NCBI GenBank assembly: GCA_963704725.1
Contig: OY969934.1
Coordinates: 2,784,001-2,848,000, forward strand
Direction: 5' to 3'
DNA length: 64,000 bases
Origin: an uncultured Actinomycetes bacterium
GTDB lineage: Bacteria > Actinomycetota > UBA4738 > HRBIN12
The translations under genes were made by a program, and so were the position numbers. Below are positions 47,042 through 63,929 of this stretch, piece by piece. Each line of letters starts with the position of its first letter. Position 1 is the stretch's first letter. The notes beneath the pieces are model-generated. The model was not told the DNA's origin and did not search any database. It saw nothing but the letters and a program-made list of their open reading frames with translations.

Positions 47042-48601
47042 TCATGTTCGGACGGAGTGCGACCCCGCTCCCCGACGAAGGACGAAGCGGCGGAGCTTGC
47101 CGGACGGCGTCCTGGGGAGCTCGTCGACGACCTCGAACGCCTGCGGCACCTTGAAGCTCGCCAGCCGAGTGCGGCACAGACGCAGCAGCTCGCGCGAGAG
47201 CTCGCGAGGGTCGCGGTCGGACACGACGAACGCCTTGAGGACGGGGACCCCCGACCCGTCGTCCGTGGCGATCACCGCGGCGTCGACGACGCCGTCGTGG
47301 CCACGCAGCACGTCCTCGATCTCCGTCGGCGCCACCCAGATGCCGCCGAGCTTCACGAGGTCGTCGAGTCGTCCCGCGTGGTACACCCGGCCCTCGACGA
47401 TGCGGACGCGATCCCCCGTCCTCATCCACGAGCCCTGGTAGGCGCGCTCGGTGAGCTCGGGGCGCCGCCAGTAGCCCGCGAACGTCGTCGGTCCCCGGAC
47501 CCACAGCTCGCCGTGGTCCCCCTCGGGGATCGGCTGCCCGTCCCGGTCGAGCGCCGCGACCTCGTAGCCGTCCAGGGCCCGCCCCGCGCTTCCCGGGACG
47601 ATGTCGTCCGGCCGGTTCGACGTGACGTGGTGCAGGGCCTCCGTCGAGCCGAGCCCGTCGAGGAGCGACCGGCCGAAGGCGCTCCGGAAGCGTTCGTACA
47701 GATCGGTGTCCAGCGCCTCGCCGGCGCTCACGACCGCCCGGACCGAGGAGGGGAGATCGGCCCCGGACAGGCCGGCGAAGCCGCGGAAGAACGCCGGCAC
47801 GCCGAACAGCAGCGTCGGGTGGCTCCGGCCGAGGAGGTCGTTGACCATGGCGGGGATCGCCGGCGTCTCGGCCACGACCACGGAGGCGCCCACCGAGGCC
47901 GGCAGGTACACGGAGTTGCCGAGCCCGTAGGCGAAGAACATCCTCGACACCGAGAACGCGACGTCGTCCGCCTCCATCGCCAGCACCTGCGCGGCCAGCC
48001 CGTTGGGCGCGAACCGCAGGTGGCGATGTCGGTGCATCGCGGCTTTGGGCAGGCCGGTCGTCCCCGACGTGTAGAGCCACAGGGCGATGTCGTCCTCCCG
48101 TGTGGGCGCCGGCTCGAGCGTCGCGGGCCTGCCGCAAGCCTCCGACCACGAGATGGTCTCGTCCATGGGCTCGGGCTCGGCCAGCAGGCACGCCACGGAC
48201 GTGCCCTCGACCGCGCGGCGCGCGGCCGAGACCGACGTGGCGTCGCACACCAGCGCGCGAGCCTCGCTGTCGGTCAGGATGAAGTGGAGGTCGGAGGCCG
48301 AGAACATGGGCGCCACGGGGACGGGGACGAGCCCGGCCTTGACGGCCCCCCAGAACGTGGCGACGAACTCGAGGCGGTCGCGGGTGGCGATGACGACCCG
48401 GTCGCCGCGCTCCAGCCCCAGACCCACCAGCCCGGCTCCGGCCGCATCGGCCGCGGCCGCGACCTCCGCGTAGGACCACGCCCGCGCCGACGTCCGAAGG
48501 TAGGGCCGGTCGGACCGGCCCGGAGCGAGGTTGCGCTCGAGGAGGTCGACGGCGGCGTTGTAGGACGACGCACCGTTCTCGGTCGCGGCGCGCTCGCTCA
48601 T
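47042..48601 (-). CDS. Benzoate-CoA ligase family aryl-CoA ligase
   Basis: YNAAVDLL, WLYTSGTTGLPK, FFAYGLGNS, VSAGEAL, DGLGSTEALH, TGD, GR.DD..K, PRTPSGKLRR. Confidence 0.88.
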   Translation of the reverse strand: MSERAATENGASSYNAAVDLLERNLAPGRSDRPYLRTSARAWSYAEVAAAADAAGAGLVGLGLERGDRVVIATRDRLEFVATFWGAVKAGLVPVPVAPMFSASDLHFILTDSEARALVCDATSVSAARRAVEGTSVACLLAEPEPMDETISWSEACGRPATLEPAPTREDDIALWLYTSGTTGLPKAAMHRHRHLRFAPNGLAAQVLAMEADDVAFSVSRMFFAYGLGNSVYLPASVGASVVVAETPAIPAMVNDLLGRSHPTLLFGVPAFFRGFAGLSGADLPSSVRAVVSAGEALDTDLYERFRSAFGRSLLDGLGSTEALHHVTSNRPDDIVPGSAGRALDGYEVAALDRDGQPIPEGDHGELWVRGPTTFAGYWRRPELTERAYQGSWMRTGDRVRIVEGRVYHAGRLDDLVKLGGIWVAPTEIEDVLRGHDGVVDAAVIATDDGSGVPVLKAFVVSDRDPRELSRELLRLCRTRLASFKVPQAFEVVDELPRTPSGKLRRFVLRRGAGSHSVRT

Positions 48602-50235
48602 GCCTGAGCTTCCCTGCCCCGGGTGAGATCGGTCTCCCGATCGAGGATCCGCTCCCACACGGGGGTGGGGAGCGCCTCGATCACGACGAACATGACGACC
48701 CCGCCGATGGCCGCCCGGTAGCGCCGCCACACGTAGGGGTGGAGGGTGTCCACCTCCTGCGGGAAGCAGCGCCGGAACACCTCGTCGATCTCCCCCGCGG
48801 TCTCGTGCGTTCCGAACTCGAACTCGAGCTTCTCGATCCTGGGGTCGACGAACAGCTGCCCGAGGTTCAGGTGTGTCGCCTCGAGCAGCGCCGCGAGCGT
48901 GGGGTCGATCTGCCCCAGGTCCACGTACGAGAGGTTCCGTGACAGCCACACCGATCCCATGCGATACCCCGTGCAACGGGCCAAGACCTCACCGTCCTCC
49001 GACAACGGCGGGCTCAGCCACCGGACGGGCGGCTGGAGCTTCCACTGGGACACCACCTCGAGGTGCGGCGGGGCGCCGGTGATGGACTCGATCGTCTGCG
49101 CCAGGGTTCGGTCGGTCATCCGGAGCACGGCGGCGGGATCCAGGGGGAGCCCGGCGTCTCCCGCCTCGAACGTCCCCACGGTCCGGCCGACGGCGCGCGC
49201 GATCGGGCGGAGCTCGGACATGAGCTCGCGCATGGCCTCGATGTCGATCGCCACGCCGTCGGGGTCGTGGACGGCCTCGGTCCCCACCTCCAGGACGAGG
49301 CCGTCGGCTCCCGCGGCGACCGCGGCCTTGGCCATCGCCGGCACGGTGCCGACGTGAGGCGCCGTCTGCGACGGATCCGCGACGAGCGGGAGGTGGCTCA
49401 GCTGCTTGATGAGCGGGACGGCGTTGATCTCGAACCGCGGCTTGCGCAGCGCGTCGAACGTGCGGATCCCCGACTCGCACAGGATGACCTTCCCGTTCCC
49501 GTGCAGGAGCACGTACTCGGCGGCGAGAAGGAACTCCTCCACCGTCGCTCCCGGCCCGCGCCGCAGCATCACCGGATGCTGCGTCCGGCCCATGTCCCGC
49601 AGGAGGCTGAAGTCCTGCATGTTCCGGCTCCCCACCTGCAGCAGATCGGCGACCAGGACGGCCGCCGGGAGGTGGCTCGCGTCGGCGACCTCCACGCACA
49701 GCGCCAGCCCGTGCTCGTGCGCGATGTCTCGGAGCCGGGCCAGCGCGTCGGGGGTGAGCCCGGAGGCCGCGTCGCGAGGGGGGGTCAGGGCGATCTGCCC
49801 GGCGTGGAAGACGCGGCATCCCGCCTCGCGGAGCAGCGGCGCCAACAACCGGAACCTCGCGTCGCTCGCGGCGGCCCACCTCGAGCTCACGATGACGCCG
49901 AGCGGGGCCCGGCCCCCCAACCGGACGATCTCGGGCGGCGCGAGCCCGTCCCGTTGGAGCGCGATCTCGATGGCGACGTCCTCGTCGAAGAGCTCCCGGC
50001 TCGCCAGTCGGTAGGGAACGGAGACCTGCACGAGGCGGCGGACCGAGGGAAGGCGTTCGAACGGCTCGCTCTCCACGGGCCGCACGCCGTCGCCGAGCGG
50101 CACGGCGGCCCACCCGTCGCCCCGGGTCACCCGTGCGCCCGGGAGCAGGCCCCCAGCGACCGCGAGCACGTCGGCGAGGTCGGATTCCGCCGCCGAGGGG
50201 TCGAGCACGATGACGCAGGGGGCCGTGACCTGCAC
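48598..50235 (-). CDS. Degenerate DAHP synthase (class I-beta with N-terminal regulatory domain) fused to a chorismate-pyruvate-lyase-like domain
   Basis: PYRLASRE, QVGSRNMQ, ATVEEFLLAAEY, HLPLVADPS retained; GPC, KPRT, KRG, CERG, DPSH altered. C-terminal TD.TL...E....V.VVSQ..VLAR..SRN.S...LGQL resembles the UbiC/DUF98 fold. Confidence 0.7.
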   Translation of the reverse strand: MQVTAPCVIVLDPSAAESDLADVLAVAGGLLPGARVTRGDGWAAVPLGDGVRPVESEPFERLPSVRRLVQVSVPYRLASRELFDEDVAIEIALQRDGLAPPEIVRLGGRAPLGVIVSSRWAAASDARFRLLAPLLREAGCRVFHAGQIALTPPRDAASGLTPDALARLRDIAHEHGLALCVEVADASHLPAAVLVADLLQVGSRNMQDFSLLRDMGRTQHPVMLRRGPGATVEEFLLAAEYVLLHGNGKVILCESGIRTFDALRKPRFEINAVPLIKQLSHLPLVADPSQTAPHVGTVPAMAKAAVAAGADGLVLEVGTEAVHDPDGVAIDIEAMRELMSELRPIARAVGRTVGTFEAGDAGLPLDPAAVLRMTDRTLAQTIESITGAPPHLEVVSQWKLQPPVRWLSPPLSEDGEVLARCTGYRMGSVWLSRNLSYVDLGQIDPTLAALLEATHLNLGQLFVDPRIEKLEFEFGTHETAGEIDEVFRRCFPQEVDTLHPYVWRRYRAAIGGVVMFVVIEALPTPVWERILDRETDLTRGREAQA

Positions 50236-51047
50236 TAGACCGACCTGCCCACCGCAAGCGCCATGCTGCGGACCCGTCCCATGAACCCGCCGAACGTCGA
50301 GGACTCGAGCGACTGGTCGCCGTCGGACAGCGCCGCCGCGGGGTCGGGATGGACCTCGACGAGGACGCCGTCCGCGCCGGCCGCGATCCCCGCCAGCGCC
50401 ACGGGGGTGACGAGGTCCCGCCGCCCCGTGCCGTGCGACGGATCGACCACCACGGGCAGATCGCTGCGGAGCTTGATCTCGGGGATCGCCGCGATGTCCA
50501 GGCTGTTGCGGGTGGCCGGTTCGAAGGTTCGGCTCCCTCGCTCGCAGATCACGACCTGGTCGTTGCCCCGGACCACGATGAACTCGGCGGCCGCCAGGAC
50601 CTCGTCGATCGTCGCGGTGACTCCCCGCTTCAGCAGCACGGGTCGCCCCGACGCCGCCGCGGCTTCCAGGAGCGCCCGGTTGTCCATGTTCCGCGCGCCG
50701 ATCTGCACCATGTCCGCGTACCGGGCCACGGCGGCGACCTCGTCCGCGGACATGGCCTCGGTGACGACCCCCATCTCGAGCTCGTCGGCCACCTCTCGCA
50801 TGATGGCCAAGCCGCGCTCACCAAGACCCTGGAAGCTGTAGGGAGAGGTCCGCGGCTTGAACGCCCCGCCCCGCAGGAGCACGGCCCCCGCTGCGGCTAC
50901 CGCGAGCGCGGCCTCCCGGAACTGCTCGGGGCCCTCCACCGAGCAGGGGCCGGCGACCACGCGGACCGGATGACCGGCTCCGAAGGTGATGCCCGCGACG
51001 GAAACGCCGACCCTCGACACGGGCGCGTCCATGAGATCCGCACTCAT
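50235..51047 (-). CDS. aroF: 3-deoxy-7-phosphoheptulonate (DAHP) synthase, class I-beta, no regulatory domain
   Basis: [54 protein letters not shown] all intact. Confidence 0.92.
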
Positions 51048-51367
51048 CGAATCGTTCGATCCCCTGGGAAGGTGTCCGCCCAGTGTGAGGCACCGCGCCG
51101 TAGCTCACATACGACGACGGTCGTAAACCTCCTACCGCCGCCGCAGGAGCAGCCTCGGCCGGACTACCCGAATCCGGGGAGACCGTTCGACCCGGTCGGA
51201 CCCGGGCCCCCGCCGCCCGCCGAGAGGGCCTGTGAAGGGTCCCCCATCCGGCGTAACCGAACCGACGAATTCACCCGCACAGCCGAGCAAGACCTCGGGG
51301 TCGGCGGCCGATACCTAAGGGACCCATGCGGGCCATGCCCACATGGTCATCTCGAGGGAGGAGCAGC

Positions 51368-53023
51368 ATGTCGATCACCGGTCCACTTCACCGACGGGCC
51401 CGAGCGCTCACCGTCATCGCGCTCGTGGTGGCCATGGCAACCACGTACACGGTGGCTCGCGCATCGAGGCGACCCGCCGTCCCCTACAGCGATCGCTGCA
51501 CCGCCGGCGCCCCCGACGCCGACCGGGATCGGCTCCCCGACTGCTGGGAGCGCAAGAACGGGCTCGACCCGAGCCGGGCGGACGCCGGGACCGATCTGGA
51601 CCGCGACGGCCTCCGGGCGATCGAGGAGTTCGTCCTCGACATGCGCGGGGACGGCCGGCCCCTGTTCCCCTACCGGGCATCCGTCCGCGACAGCAACGGC
51701 AATGGGACGGCGGACGGCGATGAGGACCTCGACGGGGACGGGCTCTCCAACAGGTCGGAGCTCGAGAACGGAACCGACCCGTTCGATCCGGCCGATCCGC
51801 CGACGGCGGGCTCCAGGCCGAAGCCGAGCCCGAGCCCCTCGCCGACGAAGCCGCCCCACGGCCCACCTCCGTCGCCGACCACTCCACCGACCCCGAGCCC
51901 AACACCTTCGGTGCCGCCATCGCCGTCGCCGTCTCTGCCTCCGAGCCCCGGCCCCACGCCGGGCCCGTCGTCGTGCGCCACCCCGCCGAGCTCGATCGCC
52001 TCCGACGGGTCGCACGACGTGCGCGCCGAGCTGCAGGCCTTCATCGACGGGGTCCCGGACGGATCGTGCATCACGCTTCCCTCCGGGGCCAGGTACCGCG
52101 TGGACGACACCCTGTACCTCCGGGAGCGCCACGACCTGACGATCAACGCCGCCGGCGCCACGATCTTCACGGACACGCTCGACCCGATCAACCCGGACGG
52201 GAAGGGCGGGGGGAGCTCGGACCGACGCCAGCTCCAGATCCAGGGTGGGTCGAACATCACCCTGGACGGCCTGACGATCGACGGCCCCAACCCGACGGGC
52301 GCCTACCTCCAGGAGCGTGAGCCCGAGGCGGGCCTGGCCGTGCAGGGAACCCAGGTCGCCCTGCTGGCGAACCTCACGATCCGAGAGGTCTACGGCGACT
52401 TCGCGGTCATCACCGACTACAACCCTTCCCCGGGGAACCCCGCGACGACGATCCCCGCCCGGGGCGTCGTGCTCACCGGAGGCCATTTCGAGGTGGCCGG
52501 GCGTCAGGGCGTGGCGATGACCGGCAACTCGGAGAACACCACGATCGACGGCAACAGCTTCCGCGACATGTCCCGGTCGGGGATCGACATCGAGTTGCTG
52601 CCCGGCCGGACGGTCTCCGACGCCAGGATCACGAACAACGTGTTCCAGGAGTTCGGCCTGAACTGGATCGCGATGGGCGGCCGCTCATCGGTCAACGGCG
52701 CGTACTTCGGACACAACCGGATCGTCGGAGACACGATGCGCCTCAAGATCGGGCCTCCCGCCGGCGTGTACGGCGTCGTGCACCAGCACCTGACGTTCGA
52801 CGGCAACACCTCGGACGTGCTCGCTCAAGGCGACACCGCCCTGTTCAGCTTCCGGTACGTCAACCACGTGCTGATCGTGGGCAACGTGCAGCACTTCGCC
52901 CCGAACACCGCCGGCGTGATCGTCTCGGCGGACGGCGGGTGCGACTACACGGTGGAGAACAACGACTTCGCCGGCATGACGACGATGTTCGCGACGCCGC
53001 GCCCGCCCGCCTGCTCGGCCTGA
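51368..53023 (+). CDS. Secreted protein: DxDxDG Ca-binding (TSP3-like) repeats, Pro/Ser linker, pectate-lyase-like beta-helix
   Basis: Signal peptide; DADRDRLPD.WE, DLDRDGL, DLDGDGLSN..E...GTDP; PSP linker; LQAFID, G.SNITLDG, GIDIE beta-helix repeats. Confidence 0.78.
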   Translation: MSITGPLHRRARALTVIALVVAMATTYTVARASRRPAVPYSDRCTAGAPDADRDRLPDCWERKNGLDPSRADAGTDLDRDGLRAIEEFVLDMRGDGRPLFPYRASVRDSNGNGTADGDEDLDGDGLSNRSELENGTDPFDPADPPTAGSRPKPSPSPSPTKPPHGPPPSPTTPPTPSPTPSVPPSPSPSLPPSPGPTPGPSSCATPPSSIASDGSHDVRAELQAFIDGVPDGSCITLPSGARYRVDDTLYLRERHDLTINAAGATIFTDTLDPINPDGKGGGSSDRRQLQIQGGSNITLDGLTIDGPNPTGAYLQEREPEAGLAVQGTQVALLANLTIREVYGDFAVITDYNPSPGNPATTIPARGVVLTGGHFEVAGRQGVAMTGNSENTTIDGNSFRDMSRSGIDIELLPGRTVSDARITNNVFQEFGLNWIAMGGRSSVNGAYFGHNRIVGDTMRLKIGPPAGVYGVVHQHLTFDGNTSDVLAQGDTALFSFRYVNHVLIVGNVQHFAPNTAGVIVSADGGCDYTVENNDFAGMTTMFATPRPPACSA

Positions 53024-53251
53024 AGAGCGCGATCGGTCGACCCCGCCCTCGGCGCTCGGGGGCGGGGTTCCACCGGCGAGCATCCCCGGAGAAGGCGCCG
53101 GTCGCGAGGGCACGTCCCCGCGGACCCCGGCGCTCCCGTCACGTCCCGTAGGAAAAACACGTAGTCCAACGCATCCTTGGAGCGGTGCCCGCTCGATACG
53201 GTAGGTTGCTCAAGGCAGCGGCGAGGTAACCCCCCGACAAGGAGCCGGCTC

Positions 53252-53914
53252 GTGACCGATCGAGACACCCAGCCCCATCCCATCAGCCGCAGGCAGGTCC
53301 TGCGTGGCGCCGCGGTCGCTGGGGCCGTGGCGTGGGCGACGCCGGTGATCCAGTCGATCAATCCGACGCGTGCGTACGCGGGGACCCCGTCGCAGCAGTG
53401 CTACTCGGTGATCATCGACGCGAACGGGCAGTGCGTCCCCGTCCAGAACGCCGCGGCGTACAACTGCGTCACTCCGGAGCTCGGCGAGACGGACGGATGC
53501 GGCTTCGTGAGCGCGAGATCCGGCCCGGGTGGCGTCACGGTCGCCGTGGCCGAAGGGGTCCAGGTCGTCGACACGGGAACGAGCTCGGACGGGAACTGTC
53601 AGCCGGCGCTGTCGTCGGCGGACGCCCGGACGTGGGCGTTCTCCGGAGCGAGGGCCGACACCACGTCGCAGGTCGAGATGGTGGTCTGCGTCCCGATCGG
53701 CGGGGTGACCGGCCCCACGGGCGCGAGCGGTGCCACGGGAACCACGGGTGCCCCCGGCGCCCCGGGAGCGGACGGGGCCGGACCCACGGGCGCGAGCGGC
53801 GCGACGGGCTCCAGCGGCGCGACGGGCTCCAGCGGCGCGACGGGAGCCAGCGGCGCGACGGGCCCGAGCGGCGCGACGGGAGCCAGCGGCGCCAGCGGAA
53901 CGACCGGGAACTGA
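53252..53914 (+). CDS. Twin-arginine-leader secreted protein with 6-Cys domain and collagen-like G-X-T/S tail
   Basis: [33 protein letters not shown] leader; about 22 Gly-X-Y triplets at 53702-53911; RBS AAGGAG before GTG. Confidence 0.75.
53702..53911 (+). repeat. Collagen-like triplet repeat (9/18-bp units)
   Basis: Repeated agcggcgcgacggg(c/a) units encoding GAT/GAS/GSS/GPT. Confidence 0.85.
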
Positions 53915-53951
53915 CGGGACCGACGCGGCCGGCGGCGCGCGCGTGCCGCCC

Positions 53952-54821
53952 TCACCTGCGGGATCGCGCCACCTCGCGTTCGGGCGAGTCCCGCGAGGCG
54001 CCTCGGACGACCTCCAAGACGGATCGAACGGCCTCGTCCAGGTCGTCGATCCGGATCCGGTAGCATCGTGCGCCGCCGATCACGCGGCCGAGCAACTCGA
54101 TCCCCGCGGCGCCGAACCGGTCCAGATAGAAGGCGTTGCGGGCCATCACCATGAGCGCCTCGGCGCGGGCGATCGGCTCGAGCTCACCACCCGCGCCGGC
54201 CTCGTACCTCGGCGCGATGACGAACCGCACCGGACAGGGCCGTCCGAGAGCCCTGGCCCGCAGGTCGCTGGGCCGCACGTGGAACTGACGGCCCGTGGTC
54301 CATCGCATCCGGCTCGACTTCTCTTTGAACACGGCCTCGACGGAGGGCTTCGCCAGCCACAGGGACCGGGGGAAGGGCTGGAGCAGGCCGGTCCTCGGGT
54401 CGATCAAGGCCGCCTCGTCCGTGAGGTAGGCGCATCCGGCGCGCGTGAGCCCGGCGACGAGCGTGCTCTTGCCCGAATCGGGCGGCGCGGGAAGGACGAT
54501 GCCCGAGCCGCGCCACGACGCCGCGGCCGCGTGCACGGCGAAGAAGCCGTGATCCGAGCCGATCGCCTTCGTGCTGATGTCCCACAGCGTGAACTCGAGG
54601 ATCCGCGAGGGCGTTCGGCCGCGGTGCAGCGACGAGCCGTTCAGGTACACGGCCCACGGCTTCTCCTGCCCCGGCTCCCGGCGAAGCTCGTAGACGGGGA
54701 CCTCGGGGCCCACGTCCACCTCGAAGGGCGCGAGGAAGCGCCGGAGGAAGGCACCGAGCCGGGGGGACGCCACGATTCGGAGCGGATAGGCGAGGACCCG
54801 GTAGCGACGTTCGATCGACAT
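53952..54821 (-). CDS. HprK-related kinase
   Basis: VHAAAA..RG.GIVLPAPPDSGKSTL...L...G..YLTDE.A.ID, PFPR.L, P.Y..G. Alternative start 54878. Confidence 0.8.
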   Translation of the reverse strand: MSIERRYRVLAYPLRIVASPRLGAFLRRFLAPFEVDVGPEVPVYELRREPGQEKPWAVYLNGSSLHRGRTPSRILEFTLWDISTKAIGSDHGFFAVHAAAASWRGSGIVLPAPPDSGKSTLVAGLTRAGCAYLTDEAALIDPRTGLLQPFPRSLWLAKPSVEAVFKEKSSRMRWTTGRQFHVRPSDLRARALGRPCPVRFVIAPRYEAGAGGELEPIARAEALMVMARNAFYLDRFGAAGIELLGRVIGGARCYRIRIDDLDEAVRSVLEVVRGASRDSPEREVARSRR

Positions 54822-54896
54822 GGGTGGGGTGGCTGGTAGCGCGACGATACGCGAACCGCGCCCGGGGGCGCCGATCATCGGCGCGGCTTGGCAGTG

Positions 54897-55277
54897 TCAG
54901 GTGCAGTTGCAGGGCGTGCAGGGGCTCGCGCTGCACGAGCACGAGTTCAGGCCGGAGTCGAAGTCGTGATTCGCGTACCCCTGGCTGCGGCACAGGGCCT
55001 GGCAATCCGCGTCGTTGTTCGGGACGAGCGGAGGCGCCCCATTCGCTGCGCAGCTGCAGGCGAGGACGCCGGCCTTCGTGGGGCGCCAGCAGTAGCAGCA
55101 GTAGAACCTGGCCGAGCCCTGGACCGTGTGGGCGTAGGCCGGCTTCGCGATGCTCTGAACGGCGGGAGCCGCCCACAGGAGCGTGCCGCCCACGATCGCA
55201 CCGCGCCGAAGCAGGTCCCGGCGCGAGAGGCCGGGCTCCTTCCCCGGGTCGATCTTCTTCGGGGCGCGGTCCGTCAT
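54897..55277 (-). CDS. Small twin-arginine-leader Cys-rich protein / possible peptide precursor
   Basis: LSRRDLLRRGAIVGGTLLWAAPAVQSIAKPAYA leader (49 aa), then 77 aa with 12 Cys; RBS AAGGGGAG. Confidence 0.75.
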   Translation of the reverse strand: MTDRAPKKIDPGKEPGLSRRDLLRRGAIVGGTLLWAAPAVQSIAKPAYAHTVQGSARFYCCYCWRPTKAGVLACSCAANGAPPLVPNNDADCQALCRSQGYANHDFDSGLNSCSCSASPCTPCNCT

Positions 55278-56549: not shown

Positions 56550-56653
56550 CCATACCTCCATTCAGGTCGAACGTCGGCATGGCCCCCCACCGTGCCCCAG
56601 GGCACCGTAGTGAGCCCGCCCGCGCCGACCAAGGCTTCGGCAACGTATCTCCC

Positions 56654-57622
56654 CTACCGCGAACGCAGTGGTCCGGCCCGGTTGGCACGCCACAGAAGGA
56701 GAACCCCGGCCGACGCCGCGATCGCCGCCGCGGCCGCGATCGCGGCGGCGGCCGGCGTCGGGACCCTCGTCGCCGCCCACCCCAGCGCGGCCAGCAGGGC
56801 TCCGCCGGCGACCATGACCGCCGTGGACCGCGTCCGGCTCGAGAGCTGCAAGGTAAGGAGGTCGTACACGTGCGCGCGATCGCCCCCCGTCAGGGACTCG
56901 CGCCGGATCGCCCGCCGGATCACCGTCGAGCCGATCTCGAGCCAGAACACACCGAGACAGACCACGACGCCGAGCAGCGCGGGCCACGAGGGTGTGGCCG
57001 ACGCCGCGAGCAGCACGAGGGCTCCGGCGACGGCATACGCCCCGCCGTCGCCGAGGAAGACCCTCGCCGGCGGACGGTTCCACAGCAGGAAGGCCAGCAG
57101 GGCCGCCACGAGCGCGGGGCCCAGCGCCCCGGGATCCCCTTGCGCCGCAAGGATCAGCGCGATGCCGCCCGCCGCGACCATGGCGAGTCCGCCGGCGAGC
57201 CCGTCCTGCCCGTCCACGATGTTCACGGCGTTGGCCAGCGCGGGCACGGCGAGCACGACCGCCGCCTTGCCCACTCCGCCCAGCGGCGAGAACGTCACGC
57301 CCCCCACCGCCATCATGCCGCCGGCGACGAGCTCCACGGCCAGCCGGGCCAGGGCCGGCAGGCCCGCGAGGTCGTCGGCCGCGCCGACGGCGAGCAACGC
57401 AAGGATCGCCGCCACCGACCACAGCGCGGGGCGTTCGCCCACGATGGCGATCGCGGCGAGCGTCGCCGTCGCCACCGCCAGTCCTCCCGTGAGGGGCTTG
57501 GGCTCGGCGTGGATCTTGAGGCCGTCGCCCGACGGTCGATCCACGAGGCCCACCGCCGGCCCCACGCGGGCCAGCAGCGGCGTCAGGACGAGGCCGATGG
57601 CGAGGGCGAGGATGAACGGCAT
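56654..57622 (-). CDS. MraY/WecA-family undecaprenyl-phosphate HexNAc-1-phosphate transferase
   Basis: VDRP..KIH..P.P..GG, GAADD, NAVNIVDGQDGLA, WN.PPARVFLGDGG, DRAH; multi-TM. Confidence 0.88.
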   Translation of the reverse strand: MPFILALAIGLVLTPLLARVGPAVGLVDRPSGDGLKIHAEPKPLTGGLAVATATLAAIAIVGERPALWSVAAILALLAVGAADDLAGLPALARLAVELVAGGMMAVGGVTFSPLGGVGKAAVVLAVPALANAVNIVDGQDGLAGGLAMVAAGGIALILAAQGDPGALGPALVAALLAFLLWNRPPARVFLGDGGAYAVAGALVLLAASATPSWPALLGVVVCLGVFWLEIGSTVIRRAIRRESLTGGDRAHVYDLLTLQLSSRTRSTAVMVAGGALLAALGWAATRVPTPAAAAIAAAAAIAASAGVLLLWRANRAGPLRSR

Positions 57623-59431
57623 CGGTAGACGCAGACGTAGCTCGGCACGCCGTCGTGCAGCGCGATCTCTCCTCGCGGCTCGAACCCGACCCGTTTCACG
57701 ACCCGCCGCATGGTCAGGTTGTCCGCCGCCACGTAGCACTTGATCTCGTCCACCCCCAGCTCCTCGAGGGCGAGGAGGGCCTCGAGCGTCAGCTCGGTCC
57801 CCAGGCCCGGGGCGGTCTTCGGCCGGATGCCGATCAGCGTGTGCTCGGCGTCGGGCAGGCCCTCGGTCTGCTCCGGATACCGGAACAGCTCATACGCGCG
57901 GCGGAGGACGCCCGGGCGCAGAAGCCTGGGCGCGGCGCTGATCGCCGCGGGGACGCCGTACCGGAGCACGAACCGCCGCCGGAAGGCGCGCATCGAGACG
58001 GCACCCGACGTGTAGCCGATGACGTCCCCGCCGCGATCGGCCACGAACGTGGGGGTCGTGGGATCGTCGACCAGCGCTCGGAACAGGTGCCGCAGGAAAG
58101 GCTCCCCGAGCATGGGCAGGAACGCCTTCGTCATGACGCCGGCGTGAAGCGTTGCCATGGCCCGGACGTCCGCGCGCGTCGCCGGCCGGATGACCACATC
58201 GCGCAGCCCCTCCAACTCCACCGGCCGCACCCGCCGGCGCCGCTCGGGCAGGAGGGGGCGGTAGACGCCGACCACCCGCGACGCCACGGCGCGCTCGTCG
58301 AAGCGCTCCAGCGCGCGCTCCCGGGCGGCGCGCGAGAGACGGTCGCGCAGGCCGGCGTCACCCAGGAGACGATCGATCGCCTCCGTGAGCCCAGGCGCGT
58401 CGCGGGGCGGCACCAGCAGAGCCTCCACGCCGTCCCGCGCCACCTCGCGGCAGCCCCGGATGTCGGTCAGGACCATGGCCCGGCCCATGGCCGCCGCCTC
58501 GATGGCCGAGCGCGGCATCCCTTCCCGCCACGAGGGGAGCACGAACACGTCCATCAGCGCGAGCAGGTCACGGACATCGCTGCGGTAGCCGGCGAACACC
58601 ACGTCGGAAGCGACGGTCTCGCGCTCCGCGGCGGAGATCGCATCGTCCTTGTCGGGGTCGGACGGCCCGATGGCCAGGAACACCACGCCGGGGCGCCGGG
58701 CCCGGATGGCCCGAGCGGCGTGGAAGAACTCCCGATAGCCCTTCTCCTGCACCAGTCGCCCCACCATGCCCACCACGAGGGCATCGGGGTCGATGCCCGA
58801 GCTCGGCTCGAGCGGCGGCGAGCCGATCGGGATCGACGGCCGCGGCGTCGAACGTGGACAGGTCGGTGCCGTTGCCGAGGTGGTGGGACCTCCCCCGGCG
58901 GCCGATGCGCAGGCGCCGCGCCCACCGCAGATCCTCCTCGCTCTGGTAGAGCTCCGCGTGGCTGAGGCGCGACGCGAGCCACTCAAGGGTCATGACGGGC
59001 ACGCGCTTGCGCGCGGGGTCCTCGGGCGTCGCCCAGAACCCATGGACCGTGTTGACGACGACCGGCACGCCGGCCACCCGCCCCGCCACCCGCCCCATCA
59101 GCCCCGGCTTGGGGTTGTGGGTGTGGACCACGTCGAACCGCCCTCGTCGGAGGATGCCGACCAGTTCGACGAACGCCCGGGCATCGGCGGCGGGGCTCCA
59201 CGCCCTCGTGGCGTTGCGCCACGCGACGTGCTCGATGCCCTCGTGTCGCAGATCGTCGACCCACTCCCCCGGCGCGCTGATCGCCGTGACCTCGAACCCC
59301 TCGTCCCGAAGGCGGCGAAGCTGCTCGAGCAGCAGGAACCGCAGCGTGAGATCCACGGTCGTCACGTGCGCCACGCGGTAGGGCCGCCGCGCGACCTCGG
59401 AGGTGGCCGGTGAACGACCCGTCCGCGTCAC
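57583..59431 (-). pseudogene. GT4 glycosyltransferase fused to a C-terminal GNAT domain, split by a 1-nt frameshift (pseudogene or sequencing error)
   Basis: One frame reads VHTHNPKPG..GNGTDL..RAELG and another reads IDPDALVVGMVGRLV.EKG..LPSWREGMP..EA followed by GNAT. Removing one base from the ccc at 58796-58798 restores ELGIDPD. Confidence 0.8.
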
Positions 59432-60222
59432 GCCGGCGCCCATGGACCCCTGCGGAGCGCCCGATACGCCAGCCGTTCCCCGTCCAGCCGTCCGCGCGCC
59501 TTCGCCCGGAAGAAGAACCCACCGTCGCTGCGCATGATCGGGGTCCGCCCCAGACGGTGGGGGTCGATGCGCCCCGCCCGGTTGGTCTTCCACGCTTCCA
59601 CGGCGGCGGTGGCGAACCGCCGGCGCGCCGTGCGCTCGGCGGCGGGGGACGCTTTGCCCCACGGGAAGGCGAAGTGTGAGCAGCGGGTGCCCAGACGGTC
59701 CTCCACGAGCTCGGCGGACCGGCGCATCTCCTCCTCGCTCTGTTGCTCGCCGGCGCGGGACAGGTCGACGTGTCCATGGGTGTGCGAGCCGACGGTCACG
59801 AGCCCCGTCGAGATGGCCTCCTCGAGCATGGGCCACGTCAGCGCGCCGCCGGGCCCCACCCCCGTGCGAGGGTCACCGGCCTCGACGAACGCCGTCGCCA
59901 GGTACAGGAGCGCCGGCAGGCGGTGCCGGACCAAGCTGGGCAGCACCGCATCGTGGAAGTCGCGGAACCCGTCGTCGATCGTGATCACGACGCCCCCCCG
60001 CGGATCCGACAGGGCGTCCTCCAGCGTCCGCACGCTGCCCTCGGCGGCGAGTGACGCCAGATGCTCGTCGAACAGAGCGCCGGGCACGTCGATCTCCCGA
60101 TCCCCCGCACCCACGCGGTGGTAGCACAGGATCGTGACGTCGCCGGGACGTCGCCGCGTGGCCACGCCGAGCGGCAACGCCGCGACCTTCACCCCCGTTC
60201 GGACCAGGCCCTCGACCGTCAT
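59428..60222 (-). CDS. Polysaccharide deacetylase (CE4/NodB family)
   Basis: ILCYHRV, ITIDDG, GSHTHGH, FAFPWG. Confidence 0.88.
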   Translation of the reverse strand: MTVEGLVRTGVKVAALPLGVATRRRPGDVTILCYHRVGAGDREIDVPGALFDEHLASLAAEGSVRTLEDALSDPRGGVVITIDDGFRDFHDAVLPSLVRHRLPALLYLATAFVEAGDPRTGVGPGGALTWPMLEEAISTGLVTVGSHTHGHVDLSRAGEQQSEEEMRRSAELVEDRLGTRCSHFAFPWGKASPAAERTARRRFATAAVEAWKTNRAGRIDPHRLGRTPIMRSDGGFFFRAKARGRLDGERLAYRALRRGPWAPA

Positions 60223-61151
60223 GCCGTCTCGCTCGACGCCGGAGCGGGTGCCGGATCCCCTGCACCGCGTTCGGCGGCCCAGGCCACCACGGCCTCGACC
60301 ACCGCATCCTGGATCGGCGGGCTGAGGAACCCGTGGATCCTGCCGGGGATGGTCCGCACCTCCACACCATCCGGGGCCGCTCGCAGCGCATCCGCCAGCG
60401 GGCCGGCGGTCGCCTCGCGGTACTCCTGGAGGGAGGAGTCGTCGGTCCCGAAGATCTGGACGATCGGGACGCCGCGCTCGAGCAGCGCGCGCATCGGCCG
60501 CTCGTAGCTGGGACCCACCAGCGCCGACCCCGAGGATCGATCCTCGCTCCTGCGGAGCTTCGCGCGCGCGTACCTCGCGTAGCGCTCTCGGGATCGCCGG
60601 TCGAGCAGGCCCTTGAGCCGCCGCAGTCGGAGCGCCTCGACCGCGTACCTGCCGAGGTTCCACGTCGCCGCGGCGTTCGCGGCCTTGCGCCCGCCACGCT
60701 CGTGATCGCGCAGCGACGTCGCGAGCAGCACCACGGCGTCCACGTCCGAGATCTCGGCCGCCGCCGCCAGCGCGCTCCGGCCTCCGAAGCAGGACCCCAC
60801 GAGGATCACGCGCTCCACACCGAGCTCGTGGAACCTGGCCACGGCGGCGCGGACGTCGGCGTCGAACGGCCGGTCCAGCCGGAACCCTTCGACGAAGCCG
60901 GTGCTGTCGCCCGTGCCGTGGTAGTCGCACCGCAGCACCGCGTACCCCAGCCGAACCAGCTGGCGCGCCATGCGGACCGAGAGGCGATTGCGGTTGACCG
61001 TGAACGGCGTGCCCGCTCCGGGAAGGATGACGATGCCGGTCCGCACCGACCCGCTCTGCGGCAGCGTCACGACCCCGAAGAGCCTCGCGTCGGTCGTCTC
61101 GAAGAAGACCGGCAGCTCCGTGTATCCGGTCGTCACCATCGTGTCGCTCAC
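60219..61151 (-). CDS. Alpha/beta hydrolase, Cys-nucleophile type (exosortase-associated hydrolase-1-like)
   Basis: NRNR..V..AR.L...G..VLR.DY.G.GDS.G, elbow GSCFGG, IFG.DD, IHGF. Confidence 0.75.
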   Translation of the reverse strand: MSDTMVTTGYTELPVFFETTDARLFGVVTLPQSGSVRTGIVILPGAGTPFTVNRNRLSVRMARQLVRLGYAVLRCDYHGTGDSTGFVEGFRLDRPFDADVRAAVARFHELGVERVILVGSCFGGRSALAAAAEISDVDAVVLLATSLRDHERGGRKAANAAATWNLGRYAVEALRLRRLKGLLDRRSRERYARYARAKLRRSEDRSSGSALVGPSYERPMRALLERGVPIVQIFGTDDSSLQEYREATAGPLADALRAAPDGVEVRTIPGRIHGFLSPPIQDAVVEAVVAWAAERGAGDPAPAPASSETA

Positions 61152-62059
61152 ATCGTTCCTCCGCCGGCGCCCGCACCGATCCACGCCACCGTTCGGCCGA
61201 TCAGGGCGCCCGTCAGCGACCGCGTGGTCTCATCGACGTATCGCTCCTCGATGAGCCACCACGTCTCCTCCCCCCGGACACCCTCGGCGTCGACCCGGAT
61301 CCCGGCGGCGCGCCATCGCTCCACGAGCCGGTCCATGTCGGGACGCACCGAGCCGGTTGGACCCACCTGGACCACGAGCACGCGCCGAGGCGCGGACCCG
61401 AGCTCGGACTCGAGCGAGCGGCCGGCCGAGGAACGGTACAGGGGCGCGTCCAGCCGGTGCGCGACGACGTCCACGGACTCCCCCCTGCGGAGCTGCTCCT
61501 CGAGCTCCCTCCCCGACGCCGGACCTTCGACGCCCCGACGGATCTCCCGAACGAGCCGGCTCCGGAACGCGTCCTTGAAGAAGCCCGCCGAGTCGAGCAG
61601 GGGCTCCCACAGCGCGACCCCGGCCCCTGGAACCGCGTTCGCCGCCGATGCCGCGATCAGTGCGCCCCAACGGCATCCGACGATCGTGAGCGGCCCAGTG
61701 GGGGCCACGGCTCGGAGGTGCTCGATGCTCACGAGCGCGTCTTCCCGCATCGAGTCGAAGGTGAGATCGGCCGCGTCCCCGTCGCTGTTGCCCGAACCTC
61801 GATAGTGGAACCGCAGGGCGGCGAACCCCTGCCTCGCGAGGGCACGGGCGAGCAGGACCTCGCGCCGGTAGTTCTTCGCGAACTCTCCGAGCAGCGGTGA
61901 GCAGATCGCCACCGCGGCCCTGGGAGCCGATGCCGGCAGGTGGAGGTACGTGAAGATGCGGGCACCGATGTCGCCCCGGAACTCGGCGCGCTCGGTCGTG
62001 CCATCAGCGGCCACGGCGGTCGCCACCGCCGGTCCCGCCCGATCCACCTCGATCGCCAT
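61148..62059 (-). CDS. Alpha/beta hydrolase fold, Arg at nucleophile position (hydrolase-2-like)
   Basis: CSPLLGEF..NYRR..LAR.LA..G...LRF.Y.G.GNSDGD, elbow GCRWGA, LWEP, WW. Confidence 0.75.
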   Translation of the reverse strand: MAIEVDRAGPAVATAVAADGTTERAEFRGDIGARIFTYLHLPASAPRAAVAICSPLLGEFAKNYRREVLLARALARQGFAALRFHYRGSGNSDGDAADLTFDSMREDALVSIEHLRAVAPTGPLTIVGCRWGALIAASAANAVPGAGVALWEPLLDSAGFFKDAFRSRLVREIRRGVEGPASGRELEEQLRRGESVDVVAHRLDAPLYRSSAGRSLESELGSAPRRVLVVQVGPTGSVRPDMDRLVERWRAAGIRVDAEGVRGEETWWLIEERYVDETTRSLTGALIGRTVAWIGAGAGGGTM

Positions 62060-62088: not shown

Positions 62089-63024
62089 TCACCCGGCCGT
62101 GCGCCGCTCGGCCGCCCAGCCGACGATCTCCTCGGCGACCGAGTCCTGGGCCGCCACCGTCGTGAACCCGTGGAGCTTGCCCGGCAGGACCGAGACCCGG
62201 ACGATCCCCCGCCCCTCGTCCAGGACGTCGGCGAGCCGGCCCCGCGCCGCCGGGAGGTACTCGTCCGTGTAGAAGCCGTCCTCGGCCCCGTAGATGAACC
62301 AGACGGGCACGCCGCGCTCGACGAGCGCTCGCAGCGGGCGTTCGAAGCTCGGCGCTACCTCCTCCGTGGAGGTGGGGCGGTCCCGCACCAGCCGGCGAAG
62401 GAGCGGCAGCTTGGCGGCCGTCACGCGCAGCTTGCCCCGCAGGTACTTCGCGTACGTGTGGCGCACACGCCCGTGTCGCAGCCCGCGCAGGGTGCTCGGA
62501 CGCAGCGCCACCCGCACGTACCGGGCGAAGCTCTTCTTGCGCGCGTAGTTCAGGCTCTTGTTCTCGCCGAGCGCGTAATCGCGAAGGGCCATGGCCACCG
62601 GGATCACGGCGTCGACGCCGTCGAGCTCGGCGGCGGCGGCGACCGCGGTCCGGGCGCCGAAGCACGATCCGGCAAGGATCACGCGCTCCACGCCGGCCCG
62701 CCGCAGGCACTCCACGGCACCCCGAACGTCGTCGATGAACGGGCGGTCGAGGCGGAACTCGTCGACCGAGCCCGTGCTGTCCCCGACCCCGTGGTAGTCG
62801 AGCCGGAACCCGGCGTAGCCGAGCGCCGCGAGCTCGCGGCAGATCCGGACCGACAGCCGGTTGCGGTTGATCGTGAGTGGCGTCCCGACGCCCGTGAGGA
62901 TGATGAGGCCCGTGCGCGCGACGCCCTCGGCGGGCAGGGTGAGGATCCCGAACAGGGTCTCGCCGCCGGCGTCGAAGTAGACGGGCGTCTCCACGTACGT
63001 GGTCGTCACGGCGAGCTCGCTCAT
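62089..63024 (-). CDS. Alpha/beta hydrolase, Cys-nucleophile type (hydrolase-1-like)
   Basis: Paralog of 60219-61151; NRNRLSV, DYHGVGDSTG, GSCFGA, YGAED, LHGF. Confidence 0.75.
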   Translation of the reverse strand: MSELAVTTTYVETPVYFDAGGETLFGILTLPAEGVARTGLIILTGVGTPLTINRNRLSVRICRELAALGYAGFRLDYHGVGDSTGSVDEFRLDRPFIDDVRGAVECLRRAGVERVILAGSCFGARTAVAAAAELDGVDAVIPVAMALRDYALGENKSLNYARKKSFARYVRVALRPSTLRGLRHGRVRHTYAKYLRGKLRVTAAKLPLLRRLVRDRPTSTEEVAPSFERPLRALVERGVPVWFIYGAEDGFYTDEYLPAARGRLADVLDEGRGIVRVSVLPGKLHGFTTVAAQDSVAEEIVGWAAERRTAG

Positions 63025-63929
63025 GCGACCTCCATCGGCGAGCGCTGCTCGACCCAGCGCGTGGTGAGCGAGATCAGCTCCTTCGTCAGCGGCCGCTGGG
63101 CCTCGTCCCTCCAGCGCTCGTCGACGAGCCACCAGCTCTCCTCGCCTCGCACCGCCGGCGTCTCCACGTCGAAGCCGTCCGCCCGCCATCGCTCGGCCTG
63201 GCGGGCGAGGTCGTGGCGCACGGAACCGGTCGGCCCGATCTGCACGGCCAGGATCGGCCGTGGCGCCGGGCCGAGCTCTCCCGCGATCGACCGCCCCACC
63301 GAGGAGCCATACAGCTGCGGCATCAGCCGGTGCCCGGGCACCTCCACGGGCGTTCCGTCGCGCAGCCGCTGCTCGAGCTCCTGGCTCGTCGGCGGATGCT
63401 CGACGCCGTCACGCATCGCCTTCACCAGGAGGTTCCGGAAGGCCGCCTTGAAGAACGCCGAGGCTTCCAGGAGCGGCTCGAGGAGCACCACCCCGGCGCC
63501 CGGATGCGCCGCAGCCGCCGAGGCGGCGATGAGCGCCCCCCACCGGGTTCCGAGGAAGAACCGCGGCCCCGGCGGGACCTCCTCGTCGATGCGCTCGGCG
63601 GCGGCCAGGGCGTCCTCGCGCATCGACGCGAACGTCAGGTCCTCGTCGTCTCCGTCGCTGTTTCCGGTGAATCGGTAGTGGAAGCGCAGGGCGGCGTACC
63701 CGCGATGCGCGAGCCGCCGCGCGATGAGCACCTCACGCCGGTAGTTGTGCATGAACTCGCCGAGCAGCGGCGAGCAGACGACCACGGCGCCGCGCGGCCG
63801 GGACGCCGGAAGGTGCACGAACGTGAGCACCCGGCCCCCCGCCGGGCCACGCAGCTCCGCGCGCTCCACGGAACCGTCTGCCGCGACCCGTGTCGCCTCT
63901 GCGGCGACGACGGGATCGGACTGGACCAT
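63021..63929 (-). CDS. Alpha/beta hydrolase fold, hydrolase-2-like
   Basis: Paralog of 61148-62059; CSPLLGEFMHNYRR, GNSDGD, GTRWGA, LLEP, SWW. Confidence 0.75.
   Translation of the reverse strand: MVQSDPVVAAEATRVAADGSVERAELRGPAGGRVLTFVHLPASRPRGAVVVCSPLLGEFMHNYRREVLIARRLAHRGYAALRFHYRFTGNSDGDDEDLTFASMREDALAAAERIDEEVPPGPRFFLGTRWGALIAASAAAAHPGAGVVLLEPLLEASAFFKAAFRNLLVKAMRDGVEHPPTSQELEQRLRDGTPVEVPGHRLMPQLYGSSVGRSIAGELGPAPRPILAVQIGPTGSVRHDLARQAERWRADGFDVETPAVRGEESWWLVDERWRDEAQRPLTKELISLTTRWVEQRSPMEVA

Follow-up and report, generated by a model that had tools for sequence, protein, structure and literature searches.

What do three overlapping genes of aromatic metabolism make, and what becomes of their product, when they are embedded in a large island of polysaccharide genes? 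This question is raised by a locus in the 95%-complete, single-contig genome of an uncultured Actinomycetes bacterium (UBA4738; HRBIN12; assembly GCA_963704725.1). The stretch analysed here, called the window, comprises 64,000 nucleotides of contig OY969934.1 (positions 2,784,001-2,848,000). Its minus strand carries genes for a 3-deoxy-D-arabino-heptulosonate 7-phosphate (DAHP) synthase (DAHPS), for a protein that fuses a degenerate DAHPS to a chorismate-lyase-like domain, and for an aromatic-acid adenylating ligase. We conclude that this trio quite probably makes activated 4-hydroxybenzoate. The reading that we favour as a whole, in which this aromatic-acid supply module is followed by transfer to a glycan by paired alpha/beta hydrolases (hyd1 and hyd2), is assigned a probability of roughly 0.45. 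The glycan as acceptor of the aroyl group is, on its own, a tentative assignment to which we give somewhat less than an even chance.

Genes were named with Pfam and NCBIfam models and their curated cut-offs. Because the G+C content of the window is ~70%, reading frames were chosen by GC content at third codon positions, which is 0.90-0.94 in each named gene. The DNA read around the trio amounts to 104 kb (the window plus its flanks). Fourteen related loci were gathered for comparison (L004-L012, L014 and L025-L028); locus L015 (genome G120) was excluded from all counts, as its identities equal those of L012 and it probably represents the same genome. Locus L009 and genome G408 are flagged as unpublished. 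A scan of metagenomes yielded at least four loci and added little to the counts.

The overlapping trio

The genes and domains of the trio are as follows.

50235-51047, minus strand: DAHP synthase, core-only type I-beta, 270 amino acids (P0002; PRK08673, TIGR01361)
48598-50235, minus strand: fusion protein, 545 amino acids (P0001; partial DAHP_synth_1 match at residues 159-318)
49186-50235, minus strand: N-terminal 350 amino acids of P0001, a ferredoxin-like domain and a degenerate DAHPS barrel (alignment to 1vr6/1rzm)
48598-49185, minus strand: C-terminal ~195 amino acids of P0001, chorismate pyruvate-lyase-like (DUF98/Rv2949c-like; predicted structure and profile)
47042-48601, minus strand: aromatic-acid adenylating ligase of the benzoate-CoA ligase family (P0003; TIGR02262)

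Both junctions within the trio consist of overlapping codons. The TAG stop of the DAHPS gene shares bases with the GTG start of the fusion gene (TAGTG), and the TGA stop of the fusion gene shares bases with the likely ATG start of the ligase gene at 48601 (ATGA); the longest open reading frame (ORF) for the ligase begins at a GTG at 48658. An earlier note on this DNA had described a coupled minus-strand trio, composed of a DAHPS dedicated to shikimate supply, a degenerate DAHPS fused to a chorismate-lyase-fold domain and a benzoate-CoA-type ligase. The overlaps bear out the coupling, and the identities of the three proteins were upheld by the evidence given below. A scan of positions 45800-55400 gave no promoter-like sites, and the four terminator-like sites detected there, compared with 1.9 expected by chance, are uninformative.

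The 270-residue protein scores above the cut-offs of both PRK08673 (368.9 bits, cut-off 335) and TIGR01361 (343.8 bits, cut-off 267.75). Enzymes of type I-beta bind their metal through Cys, His, Glu and Asp residues and bind phosphate through a KPRS/T motif. Alignment of P0002 with PDB entries 1vs1 and 3pg8 reveals that every catalytic and metal motif of the type, including SDG, is kept. A KDO8P- or NeuB-type synthase was rejected as the identity of this protein, since KDO8PS models yield 101-108 bits versus 344-369 bits for the DAHPS models. The genome encodes a second DAHPS, which carries a ferredoxin-like domain (C1:1342840-1343859; 46% identical to P0002) and is presumably the housekeeping enzyme, and a single chorismate synthase, whose gene lies elsewhere. 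Thus P0002 is an extra copy, as expected of a dedicated supply enzyme.

The fusion protein P0001 falls under the same two cut-offs, with 216.8 bits for PRK08673 (335) and 181.8 bits for TIGR01361 (267.75). Its residues 8-350 align with the DAHPS of T. maritima (1vr6/1rzm), ferredoxin-like N-terminal domain included, and its 145-residue N-terminus has no Pfam match even at an E-value of 10. Several motifs are altered (GPCSVE to SSRWAA, KPRTS to LTPPRD, LLKRG to MLRRG, CERG to CESG and DPSH to DPSQ), with replacement of the Cys, the His, the CERG Arg and the Lys of both KPRT and LLKRG; the Glu and Asp remain. In all 40 fused homologues compared, the Cys, the CERG Arg and the KPRT Lys are missing, and the His survives in nine of them. 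Because this loss of catalytic residues holds across the 40 homologues, the barrel can be regarded as a conserved pseudoenzyme, and by its residues it is judged to be catalytically dead.

The lyase-like domain and the ligase

The C-terminal domain of the fusion was assigned by predicted structure and by profile. Its AlphaFold2 model has a predicted local distance difference test score (pLDDT) of 89.3, and the top Foldseek match is 2nwi (AF1396, DUF98; E 1.2e-7), with the chorismate lyase UbiC also matched (1fw9; E 4.3e-4). With VIA-align, the domain superimposes on 2nwi with Z 16.4 and a root-mean-square deviation of 2.8 Å over 152 of 159 residues, compared with Z 11.8 for UbiC (1g81), 11.9 for the effector domain of DasR and 10-12 for UTRA effector domains. 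A single-sequence phmmer search of the PDB gave chance matches only (E 0.13 and above), and a 12-sequence profile (A2) searched against 177,635 PDB sequences matched 2nwi alone (E 0.0011). Invariant residues of the alignment include R70 of A2, which is paired with an Arg in 2nwi, and E170, a Glu in the last strand. In E. coli UbiC, Arg76 and Glu155 bind 4-hydroxybenzoate (PMC7879144); R70 and E170 match these two residues in position only.

Profile A2 was also searched against 1.84 billion proteins and returned 65 representatives, most of which are stand-alone proteins of ~170-195 residues and a few of which are fusions of 520-560 residues. Three of the 44 representatives scanned pass the Rv2949c-like model PF01947 (cut-off 22 bits), namely P0177 (E 1.6e-8; 34.2 bits), P0183 (42.5 bits) and P0184 (32.4 bits), and the other 41 lack a lyase model. 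The named Atlas clusters nearest to the domain are Rv2949c-like and Chor_lyase (0.94). Domain fusions link the same activities: P0132 (709 residues) joins a lyase-like domain to an AMP-binding ligase, and P0074 (890 residues) joins DAHPS-like and ligase domains according to precomputed Pfam domains. Structure and profile together suggest that the C-terminal domain is a divergent sister of the Rv2949c-like chorismate pyruvate-lyases that falls outside existing models.

The ligase P0003 scores 408.5 bits with TIGR02262 (cut-off 375.25), with its residues 32-529 covering positions 2-507 of the 508 in the profile. Other ligase models score lower, at 312 bits for HbdA (3-hydroxybenzoate-CoA ligase) and 270 bits for FadD22. 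Its best relatives in the PDB are a benzoate-CoA ligase (2v7b, 309 bits), an anthranilate-CoA ligase (4wv3) and BadA (4eat). These matches confirm the benzoate-CoA type that had been assigned to this gene.

These same data bear on an alternative that we consider quite improbable, in which the C-terminal domain is a UTRA-type ligand sensor, the fusion is a regulatory subunit of DAHPS, and the ligase activates some other aromatic acid (benzoate, anthranilate or 3-hydroxybenzoate) that is made elsewhere or taken up. UTRA effector domains do share the fold, the dead barrel has kept its ferredoxin-like regulatory domain, and the ligase has PDB relatives that use benzoate and anthranilate in addition to its score with the 3-hydroxybenzoate-CoA ligase model. 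However, the DUF98 match lies well above the UTRA matches (Z 16.4 versus ~11-12), and sequence profiles reach DUF98/Rv2949c-like proteins only. Moreover, the stand-alone forms of ~180 residues and the lyase-ligase fusion fit an enzyme that feeds a ligase better than they fit a regulator of DAHPS, and the cassette encodes no other route to an aromatic acid.

Conservation of the trio

Relatives of the fusion come nearly all from metagenomes or from metagenome-assembled genomes of Actinomycetota. Among its best 120 matches, 74 are 526-566 residues in length, the protein of the window being counted. A DAHPS gene lies directly upstream of the fusion gene in 10 of the 12 loci with enough upstream DNA (L010 and L027 are the exceptions), and a ligase gene lies directly downstream in 12 of 13 (the exception is L027).

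Synteny of this kind also bears on the proposal that the ligase is a catabolic enzyme for benzoate or hydroxybenzoate degradation and that the DAHPS genes are unrelated neighbours. The TIGR02262 family takes in catabolic benzoate-CoA and 4-hydroxybenzoate-CoA ligases. We rejected this role, which we hold to be extremely improbable, on the overlapping start and stop codons across the three genes, the conserved three-gene synteny, and a 104-kb read in which no benzoyl-CoA reductase or oxygenase genes were seen.

The hydrolase pairs

Four alpha/beta-hydrolase genes, which form two hyd2-hyd1 pairs, lie near the right end of the window.

60219-61139, minus strand: hyd1a, Cys-nucleophile alpha/beta hydrolase (TIGR03100, 70.4 bits, plus a DLH match; elbow G-S-C-F-G-G)
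61148-62059, minus strand: hyd2a, Arg at the nucleophile position (TIGR03101, 91.2 bits; G-C-R-W-G)
62089-63024, minus strand: hyd1b, Cys nucleophile (TIGR03100, 65.0 bits; G-S-C-F-G; its ATG overlaps the hyd2b stop)
63021-63944, minus strand: hyd2b, Arg elbow (TIGR03101, 78.7 bits; G-T-R-W-G)

TIGR03100 (cut-off 168.45) and TIGR03101 (cut-off 202.75) are the best NCBIfam models for these proteins, and all four score under the cut-offs. The earlier note had described atypical hydrolases with Cys nucleophiles; this holds for hyd1a and hyd1b, whereas hyd2a and hyd2b carry Arg instead. The elbow Cys of hyd1 is invariant in 10 of 10 aligned homologues. The elbow Arg of hyd2 is present in 9 of 9 sequences from the loci and in 119 of its 120 best database homologues. 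Besides those of the window, such pairs accompany the trio in 5/9 genome loci, namely L005 and L007 (two pairs each), L008, L009 and L010. By its elbow and its gene neighbourhood, hyd2 is a predicted pseudo-hydrolase that is conserved and always travels with a Cys-hydrolase.

Searches with hyd1a did not narrow its function. The hyd1a model has a pLDDT of 75.4, its Foldseek matches are generic (esterases, lipases and dehalogenases), and an Atlas search with it returned generic alpha/beta-hydrolase clusters only. One hyd2 homologue, which also has the Arg elbow, bears the source annotation exosortase A-associated hydrolase 2. The exosortase model PF09721 has no match in the genome of the window.

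The surrounding glycan island

Between the trio and the hydrolase pairs, and on the other side of the ligase gene, lie genes for glycan synthesis together with two of other kinds.

45877-46851, minus strand: glycosyltransferase family 2 (GT2) enzyme (Glycos_transf_2, 83 bits), co-oriented and 190 nucleotides past the ligase gene
53952-54878, minus strand: HprK-related kinase A-like protein (TIGR04352, 115.5 bits, cut-off 200), with homologues in the G401 and G402 islands
54897-55277, minus strand: small exported Cys-rich protein with a twin-arginine translocation (TAT)-type signal and 14 Cys in its tail (translation)
55311-56561, minus strand: DegT/DesI-like sugar aminotransferase (PF01041, 336.6 bits; TIGR04427, 338 bits, cut-off 650)
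56654-57739, minus strand: WecA/MraY-family polyprenyl-phosphate sugar-phosphate transferase (Glycos_transf_4, 85.5 bits; TIGR02380, 78 bits, below cut-off)
57583-59410 (ORF 57583-58986), minus strand: glycosyltransferase family 4 (GT4) and GNAT domains (Glycos_transf_1, Glyco_trans_1_4 and a weak GNAT match)
59428-60222, minus strand: carbohydrate esterase family 4 (CE4) polysaccharide deacetylase (Polysacc_deac_1, 58.8 bits), with orthologues in the G401, G402 and G403 islands

The rest of the window encodes a Wzx-like flippase, a Wzz/tyrosine kinase, a Bac_transf priming enzyme, a UDP-glucose dehydrogenase (UGDH) and large secreted carbohydrate-binding proteins. Sulfation genes are also present, among them those for three sulfotransferases plus a fourth near the left end of the window.

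539-1486, 23455-24453 and 27944-28828: sulfotransferases
3058-3705: adenosine 5'-phosphosulfate (APS) kinase
3702-5168: phosphodiesterase
L016 9754-10623 and 15352-16407: sulfotransferases past the window

With so many sulfotransferases and an APS kinase, the polymer is therefore probably sulfated.

The row of minus-strand genes runs at least 20 kb past the right end of the window. Moving outward, it encodes a GT2, a 457-residue membrane protein, a GNAT, three GT4 enzymes, a second deacetylase and a sulfotransferase, followed by Wzt and Wzm, an NTP_transf_5 protein, a UGDH, a further sulfotransferase, a BD-FAE hydrolase, an adenylation enzyme, a dehydrogenase and a carrier. The 457-residue protein, which has nine hydrophobic segments, serves here as a marker for the island. 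The last four of these genes lie 17-21 kb past the window.

L016:16407-17630, minus strand: BD-FAE alpha/beta hydrolase
L016:17618-19219, minus strand: amino-acid adenylation (A) domain (best stand-alone PDB match, proline ligase 6o6e, 365 bits)
L017:1236-2399, minus strand: prolyl-carrier-dehydrogenase-like enzyme (best PDB match, prolyl-ACP dehydrogenase 4irn, 374 bits)
L017:2399-2641, minus strand: carrier protein, 81 amino acids (PP-binding, 27.6 bits)

Multidomain chains of linear gramicidin synthase score higher with the A domain (447 bits) than its best stand-alone match, and TIGR03098 gives 329 bits. The set of four is kept in G401, G402, G403 and L009. Its composition suggests a second acyl donor, one that would be derived from proline (pyrrole or dehydroproline).

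Much of this setting had been anticipated. All genes that the earlier note had named in the window (the trio, GT2, WecA, GT4-GNAT, deacetylase, DegT and the hydrolases) were recovered where it had placed them, and its glycan setting proved to be a large island that recurs with the trio. The note had also seen no acyl carrier protein (ACP) or polyketide synthase (PKS) in the window and had advised a search for an ACP past position 64000. Searches by tblastn with carrier queries found no carrier inside the window, and a carrier was found 19.4 kb past its end, in the proline-type module. No PKS, nonribosomal peptide synthetase (NRPS) condensation domain or cytochrome P450 was seen in the 104 kb read.

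The island is linked to the trio in six of the nine genomes examined, that of the window included. In G401, G402 and G403, a syntenic glycan block lies within ~35 kb of the trio; the genes shared among these are those for DegT, WecA, GT4-GNAT, deacetylase, GT2, the 457-residue protein, GNAT, GT4 enzymes, UGDH, A domain, dehydrogenase and carrier. The marker lies ~26 kb from the trio in G406 and ~40 kb from it in G404, and in G408 it is on another contig.

Several further features of the island were observed. The GT4-GNAT gene is apparently frameshifted near 58800, with the N-terminal half of GT4 in ORF 58568..59836 and the remainder in 57583..58986; a sequencing error or a genuine break in the gene would account for this. 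The signal region of the Cys-rich protein (54897-55277) is 64% identical over 39 residues to a 162-residue protein encoded at L009:2725-3210 (plus strand), between a dehydrogenase gene and hyd2. Genes for the HprK-related kinase A-like protein (53952-54878), the NTP_transf_5 protein (L016:12670-13797, minus strand) and a PqqD-like protein (L017:8236-8517, minus strand) are scattered through the island and recur in the G401 and G402 islands; we take them to resemble the uncharacterised 'HPr-rel-A' gene set. An IS481-type transposase gene lies within the island (21072-22058, minus strand). One secreted protein of 1987 residues (ORF 32199-38159, minus strand; region 32196-38159) has malectin, RGI-lyase beta-sheet and fn3 domains.

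Composition of the island also bears on whether the aromatic acid might be built into the glycan in another way, as an aglycone, a primer or a chain-end cap, or as a terminal residue that is read by the C-terminal domain of Wzt. Such an arrangement, which we consider decidedly unlikely, would have its parallel in mycobacteria, in whose p-hydroxybenzoic acid derivatives and phenolic glycolipids the sugars are built on a phenol. There, p-hydroxybenzoate formed by Rv2949c is activated by FadD22 on the way to phenolic glycolipids (PMC7205293). The score of the ligase with the FadD22 model, the many GT4 and GT2 transferases of the island and the Wzm/Wzt exporter, with its weak Wzt_C match (22.8 bits, cut-off 30.4), would all fit. 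However, that match is under the cut-off, no Pks15/1-type synthase is present, and the WecA and Bac_transf priming enzymes suggest ordinary initiation on a polyprenol-linked carrier. In addition, the conserved partners of the trio are hydrolase-fold proteins rather than phenol glycosyltransferases.

Halogenase and carrier genes in related loci

In several relatives the trio has neighbours that the window lacks. A gene for a flavin-dependent, CmlS-like halogenase adjoins the trio in L005, L007, L009, L010 and L012; these proteins carry both GxGxxG and WxWxIP, the signature motifs of flavin-dependent halogenases. A gene for a small PP-binding-type carrier directly follows the ligase gene in L005, L007, L010, L011 and L012, and both neighbours occur together in L005, L007, L010 and L012. 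In L009, from an unpublished-flagged genome, 11.7 kb hold the end of an A domain, a carrier, a prolyl-carrier dehydrogenase, hyd2, hyd1, a halogenase and the trio. The adjoining halogenases count for an aromatic substrate of the module. No halogenase or carrier gene is adjacent to the trio in the window itself. A homologue of the halogenase is encoded 68 kb away, ~5 kb to the left of the window (G000:C1:2778649-2779890, plus strand), near APS kinase and phosphodiesterase genes; it shares 38% identity with the halogenase beside the trio in L005 and has WIWQIP resembling WxWxIP, and G401 (L024) has a 55%-identical paralogue of it in a similar placement. In L006 a phosphodiesterase/APS-kinase pair directly follows the ligase gene, and in L025 a phosphodiesterase fragment does so.

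These neighbours raise a serious alternative in which the trio and the hydrolase pair, with the halogenase and carrier of relatives, make a diffusible small molecule and the glycan genes are mere neighbours. Candidate products are a (halo)hydroxybenzoate and a hydroxybenzoate/pyrrole conjugate, like those of the ambigol module or of marine bromophenol/bromopyrrole clusters. The halogenases with both motifs, the carriers that follow the ligase, the compact arrangement in L009 and the trio of L006, which has no glycan genes nearby, all speak for this view, as do clusters with chorismate lyase, flavin halogenase and P450 that make bromophenol products (PMC10579414). On balance we nevertheless consider it unlikely. 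The trio of the window stands without these adjacent genes, and its sole halogenase homologue is distant in both sequence and location; the 104 kb read has none of the PKS, condensation or P450 genes noted above. Furthermore, the same glycan block accompanies the trio in six of nine genomes, and in the window and L008 glycan genes alone lie between the hydrolase pair and the trio.

Proposed role and opposing evidence

The supply-and-activation chain is well supported by the folds and families of its proteins, by the coupling and synteny of their genes and by fusions between their domains. Decoration of a glycan is favoured as the fate of its product because of the linkage to the island, the two acyl modules without PKS or NRPS, the deacetylases and the Cys-hydrolase pairs. 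From these data we infer the following chemistry, step by step.

The extra DAHPS, which lacks a regulatory domain, would raise the flow of carbon into the shikimate pathway, whose remaining genes would lie elsewhere in the genome. From the resulting chorismate, the lyase-like domain of the fusion would release pyruvate and form 4-hydroxybenzoate. The dead barrel and its ferredoxin-like domain probably dock onto the active DAHPS or regulate it, an idea drawn from DAHPS enzymes to which a chorismate-mutase or ferredoxin-like domain is attached. The ligase would then adenylate 4-hydroxybenzoate and hand it to coenzyme A (CoA); in the relatives with a carrier gene it may hand it to the carrier. 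The module sits in a surface-glycan island of more than 85 kb, which would provide priming by WecA, glycosyltransferases, sulfotransferases, export by Wzm/Wzt and Wzx, and tyrosine kinases. The most likely fate of the aroyl group would be transfer by the Cys-nucleophile hyd1 acting with the Arg-elbow hyd2, and the glycan or its lipid-linked precursor may accept the group on a hydroxyl or on an amine freed by deacetylation.

A more elaborate version of this proposal can be drawn, although it is speculative and rather unlikely in full detail. The product would be a sulfated surface polysaccharide that bears 4-hydroxybenzoyl together with pyrrole-2-carbonyl or dehydroprolyl groups, attached by hyd1 and hyd2 as a two-subunit acyltransferase. 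A mixed complex of the fusion and DAHPS would join the first and last enzymes of the supply route and sense its product.

Several observations weigh against glycan decoration or against the supply chain behind it. With respect to the lyase assignment, the C-terminal domain of 195 residues has no Pfam match at an E-value of 10, PF01947 has no match anywhere in the genome, PF01947 and PF04345 both miss this domain, and its fold is common to ligand-binding UTRA domains. Plain hydrolysis by hyd1 is as compatible with the data as acyl transfer, because its structure matches are to generic esterases. The carrier gene beside the ligase in relatives suggests loading onto a carrier rather than onto CoA, and halogenase and carrier neighbours, each found in 5/9 related genome loci, are typical of small-molecule pathways. 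Linkage to glycan genes is also imperfect: no GT2 homologue adjoins the ligase in other loci, the island marker was not found in G405 or G407, and in L006 (from G405) the trio lies between groEL and the phosphodiesterase/APS-kinase pair with no glycan genes nearby. The trio itself is broken in L010, and L027 has a truncated fusion with neither neighbour. Finally, only 3 of 401 genomes sampled across the phylum, and none of 22 from the same family, were found to encode the C-terminal domain, which makes the trait rare and accessory.

If transfer to a glycan is correct, this locus would offer a five- or six-gene handle for finding bacterial polysaccharides decorated with aromatic acids. A limited full-text search of the literature met no report of hydroxybenzoylated bacterial polysaccharides among the titles listed. 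Aromatic groups would alter the charge, ultraviolet absorbance, hydrophobicity and enzyme resistance of soil biofilm matrices. The hyd1/hyd2 pairs, whose relatives sit unexplained in many exopolysaccharide loci, would gain a testable function, and a two-subunit acyltransferase would be the first function for the widespread hydrolase 1/hydrolase 2/ligase cassette of exosortase-type exopolysaccharide loci. The fusion would represent a new kind of pseudoenzyme, a dead DAHPS barrel kept fused to a branch enzyme in at least 74 clusters at 90% identity. If a diffusible small molecule is made instead, the cassette would mark untapped loci for (halo)hydroxybenzoate natural products in uncultured Actinomycetota.

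Comparison with known systems

The mycobacterial Rv2949c/FadD22 system is likewise from Actinomycetota and places an Rv2949c-like lyase fold beside an aromatic-acid adenylating enzyme; its product ends in a cell-surface glycoconjugate (PMC7205293), an endpoint that is proposed for the window. In contrast with that system, the lyase-like domain of the window has diverged beyond the reach of PF01947 and is part of one protein with a dead DAHPS, and a dedicated DAHPS is added. Its ligase is of the benzoate-CoA type and lacks the carrier domain of FadD22, Pks15/1 is missing, and the partners are hydrolase-fold pairs and polysaccharide genes.

The supply genes also resemble those for the 3-chloro-4-hydroxybenzoate unit of ambigol, which is reportedly made by a DAHPS isoenzyme, a chorismate lyase, an adenylating enzyme, a carrier and a halogenase. 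In modules of this type, as in the present loci, a dedicated DAHPS is encoded next to a chorismate lyase and an adenylating enzyme, and several relatives of the window have the halogenase, the carrier or both. Unlike ambigol-type and marine clusters, the trio of the window has no halogenase or adjacent carrier and no P450 or condensation enzyme, its lyase is fused to a pseudo-DAHPS, and the module lies inside a polysaccharide island.

At the level of protein architecture, the fusion can be compared with the DAHPS-chorismate mutase of the Bacillus/Listeria type (5j6f, 3nvt) and the DAHPS of T. maritima (1rzm, 1vr6), in which a type I-beta scaffold carries a ferredoxin-like N-terminal domain and/or a chorismate-binding domain. 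The fusion differs from these in that its barrel appears dead and its appended domain has a lyase fold rather than that of a mutase. Here the catalytic DAHPS is a protein of its own that has no accessory domain, and its gene immediately precedes that of the fusion.

Genes for exosortase-A-associated hydrolases 1 and 2 sit in adjacent pairs within polysaccharide loci. The corresponding exosortase-A (PEP-CTERM) cassette consists of a ligase (TIGR03098), hydrolase 1 (TIGR03100) and hydrolase 2 (TIGR03101), all of them uncharacterised. Both settings have adjacent hyd1/hyd2 pairs near an adenylating ligase within exopolysaccharide loci. The window differs in that its proteins score under the cut-offs, its genome lacks an exosortase, its phylum is of the Gram-positive type and no pyridoxal-phosphate-dependent decarboxylase partner was seen.

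The module past the window resembles the prolyl-carrier modules PltF/PltL/PltE, PigI/PigG/PigA and AnaC/AnaD/AnaB in having a carrier, a dehydrogenase and an A domain, followed by an alpha/beta hydrolase. It is distinguished from these by the lack of a PKS or NRPS and by flanking genes for a sulfotransferase, UGDH and glycan export. Transfer of a pyrrole-2-carboxyl group to a sugar occurs in clorobiocin and coumermycin (CloN genes).

These comparisons place the finding between known and new. Overall, the interpretation offered in the earlier note is upheld in part. The locus had been put forward as an undescribed pathway, and this claim overstates the case for the supply part, since dedicated DAHPS enzymes combined with a chorismate lyase and an adenylating enzyme are already known. 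What is new is the fusion of a pseudo-DAHPS to a lyase, a lyase subfamily outside existing models, and the regular association with Cys/Arg hydrolase pairs and with an island for a probably sulfated glycan.

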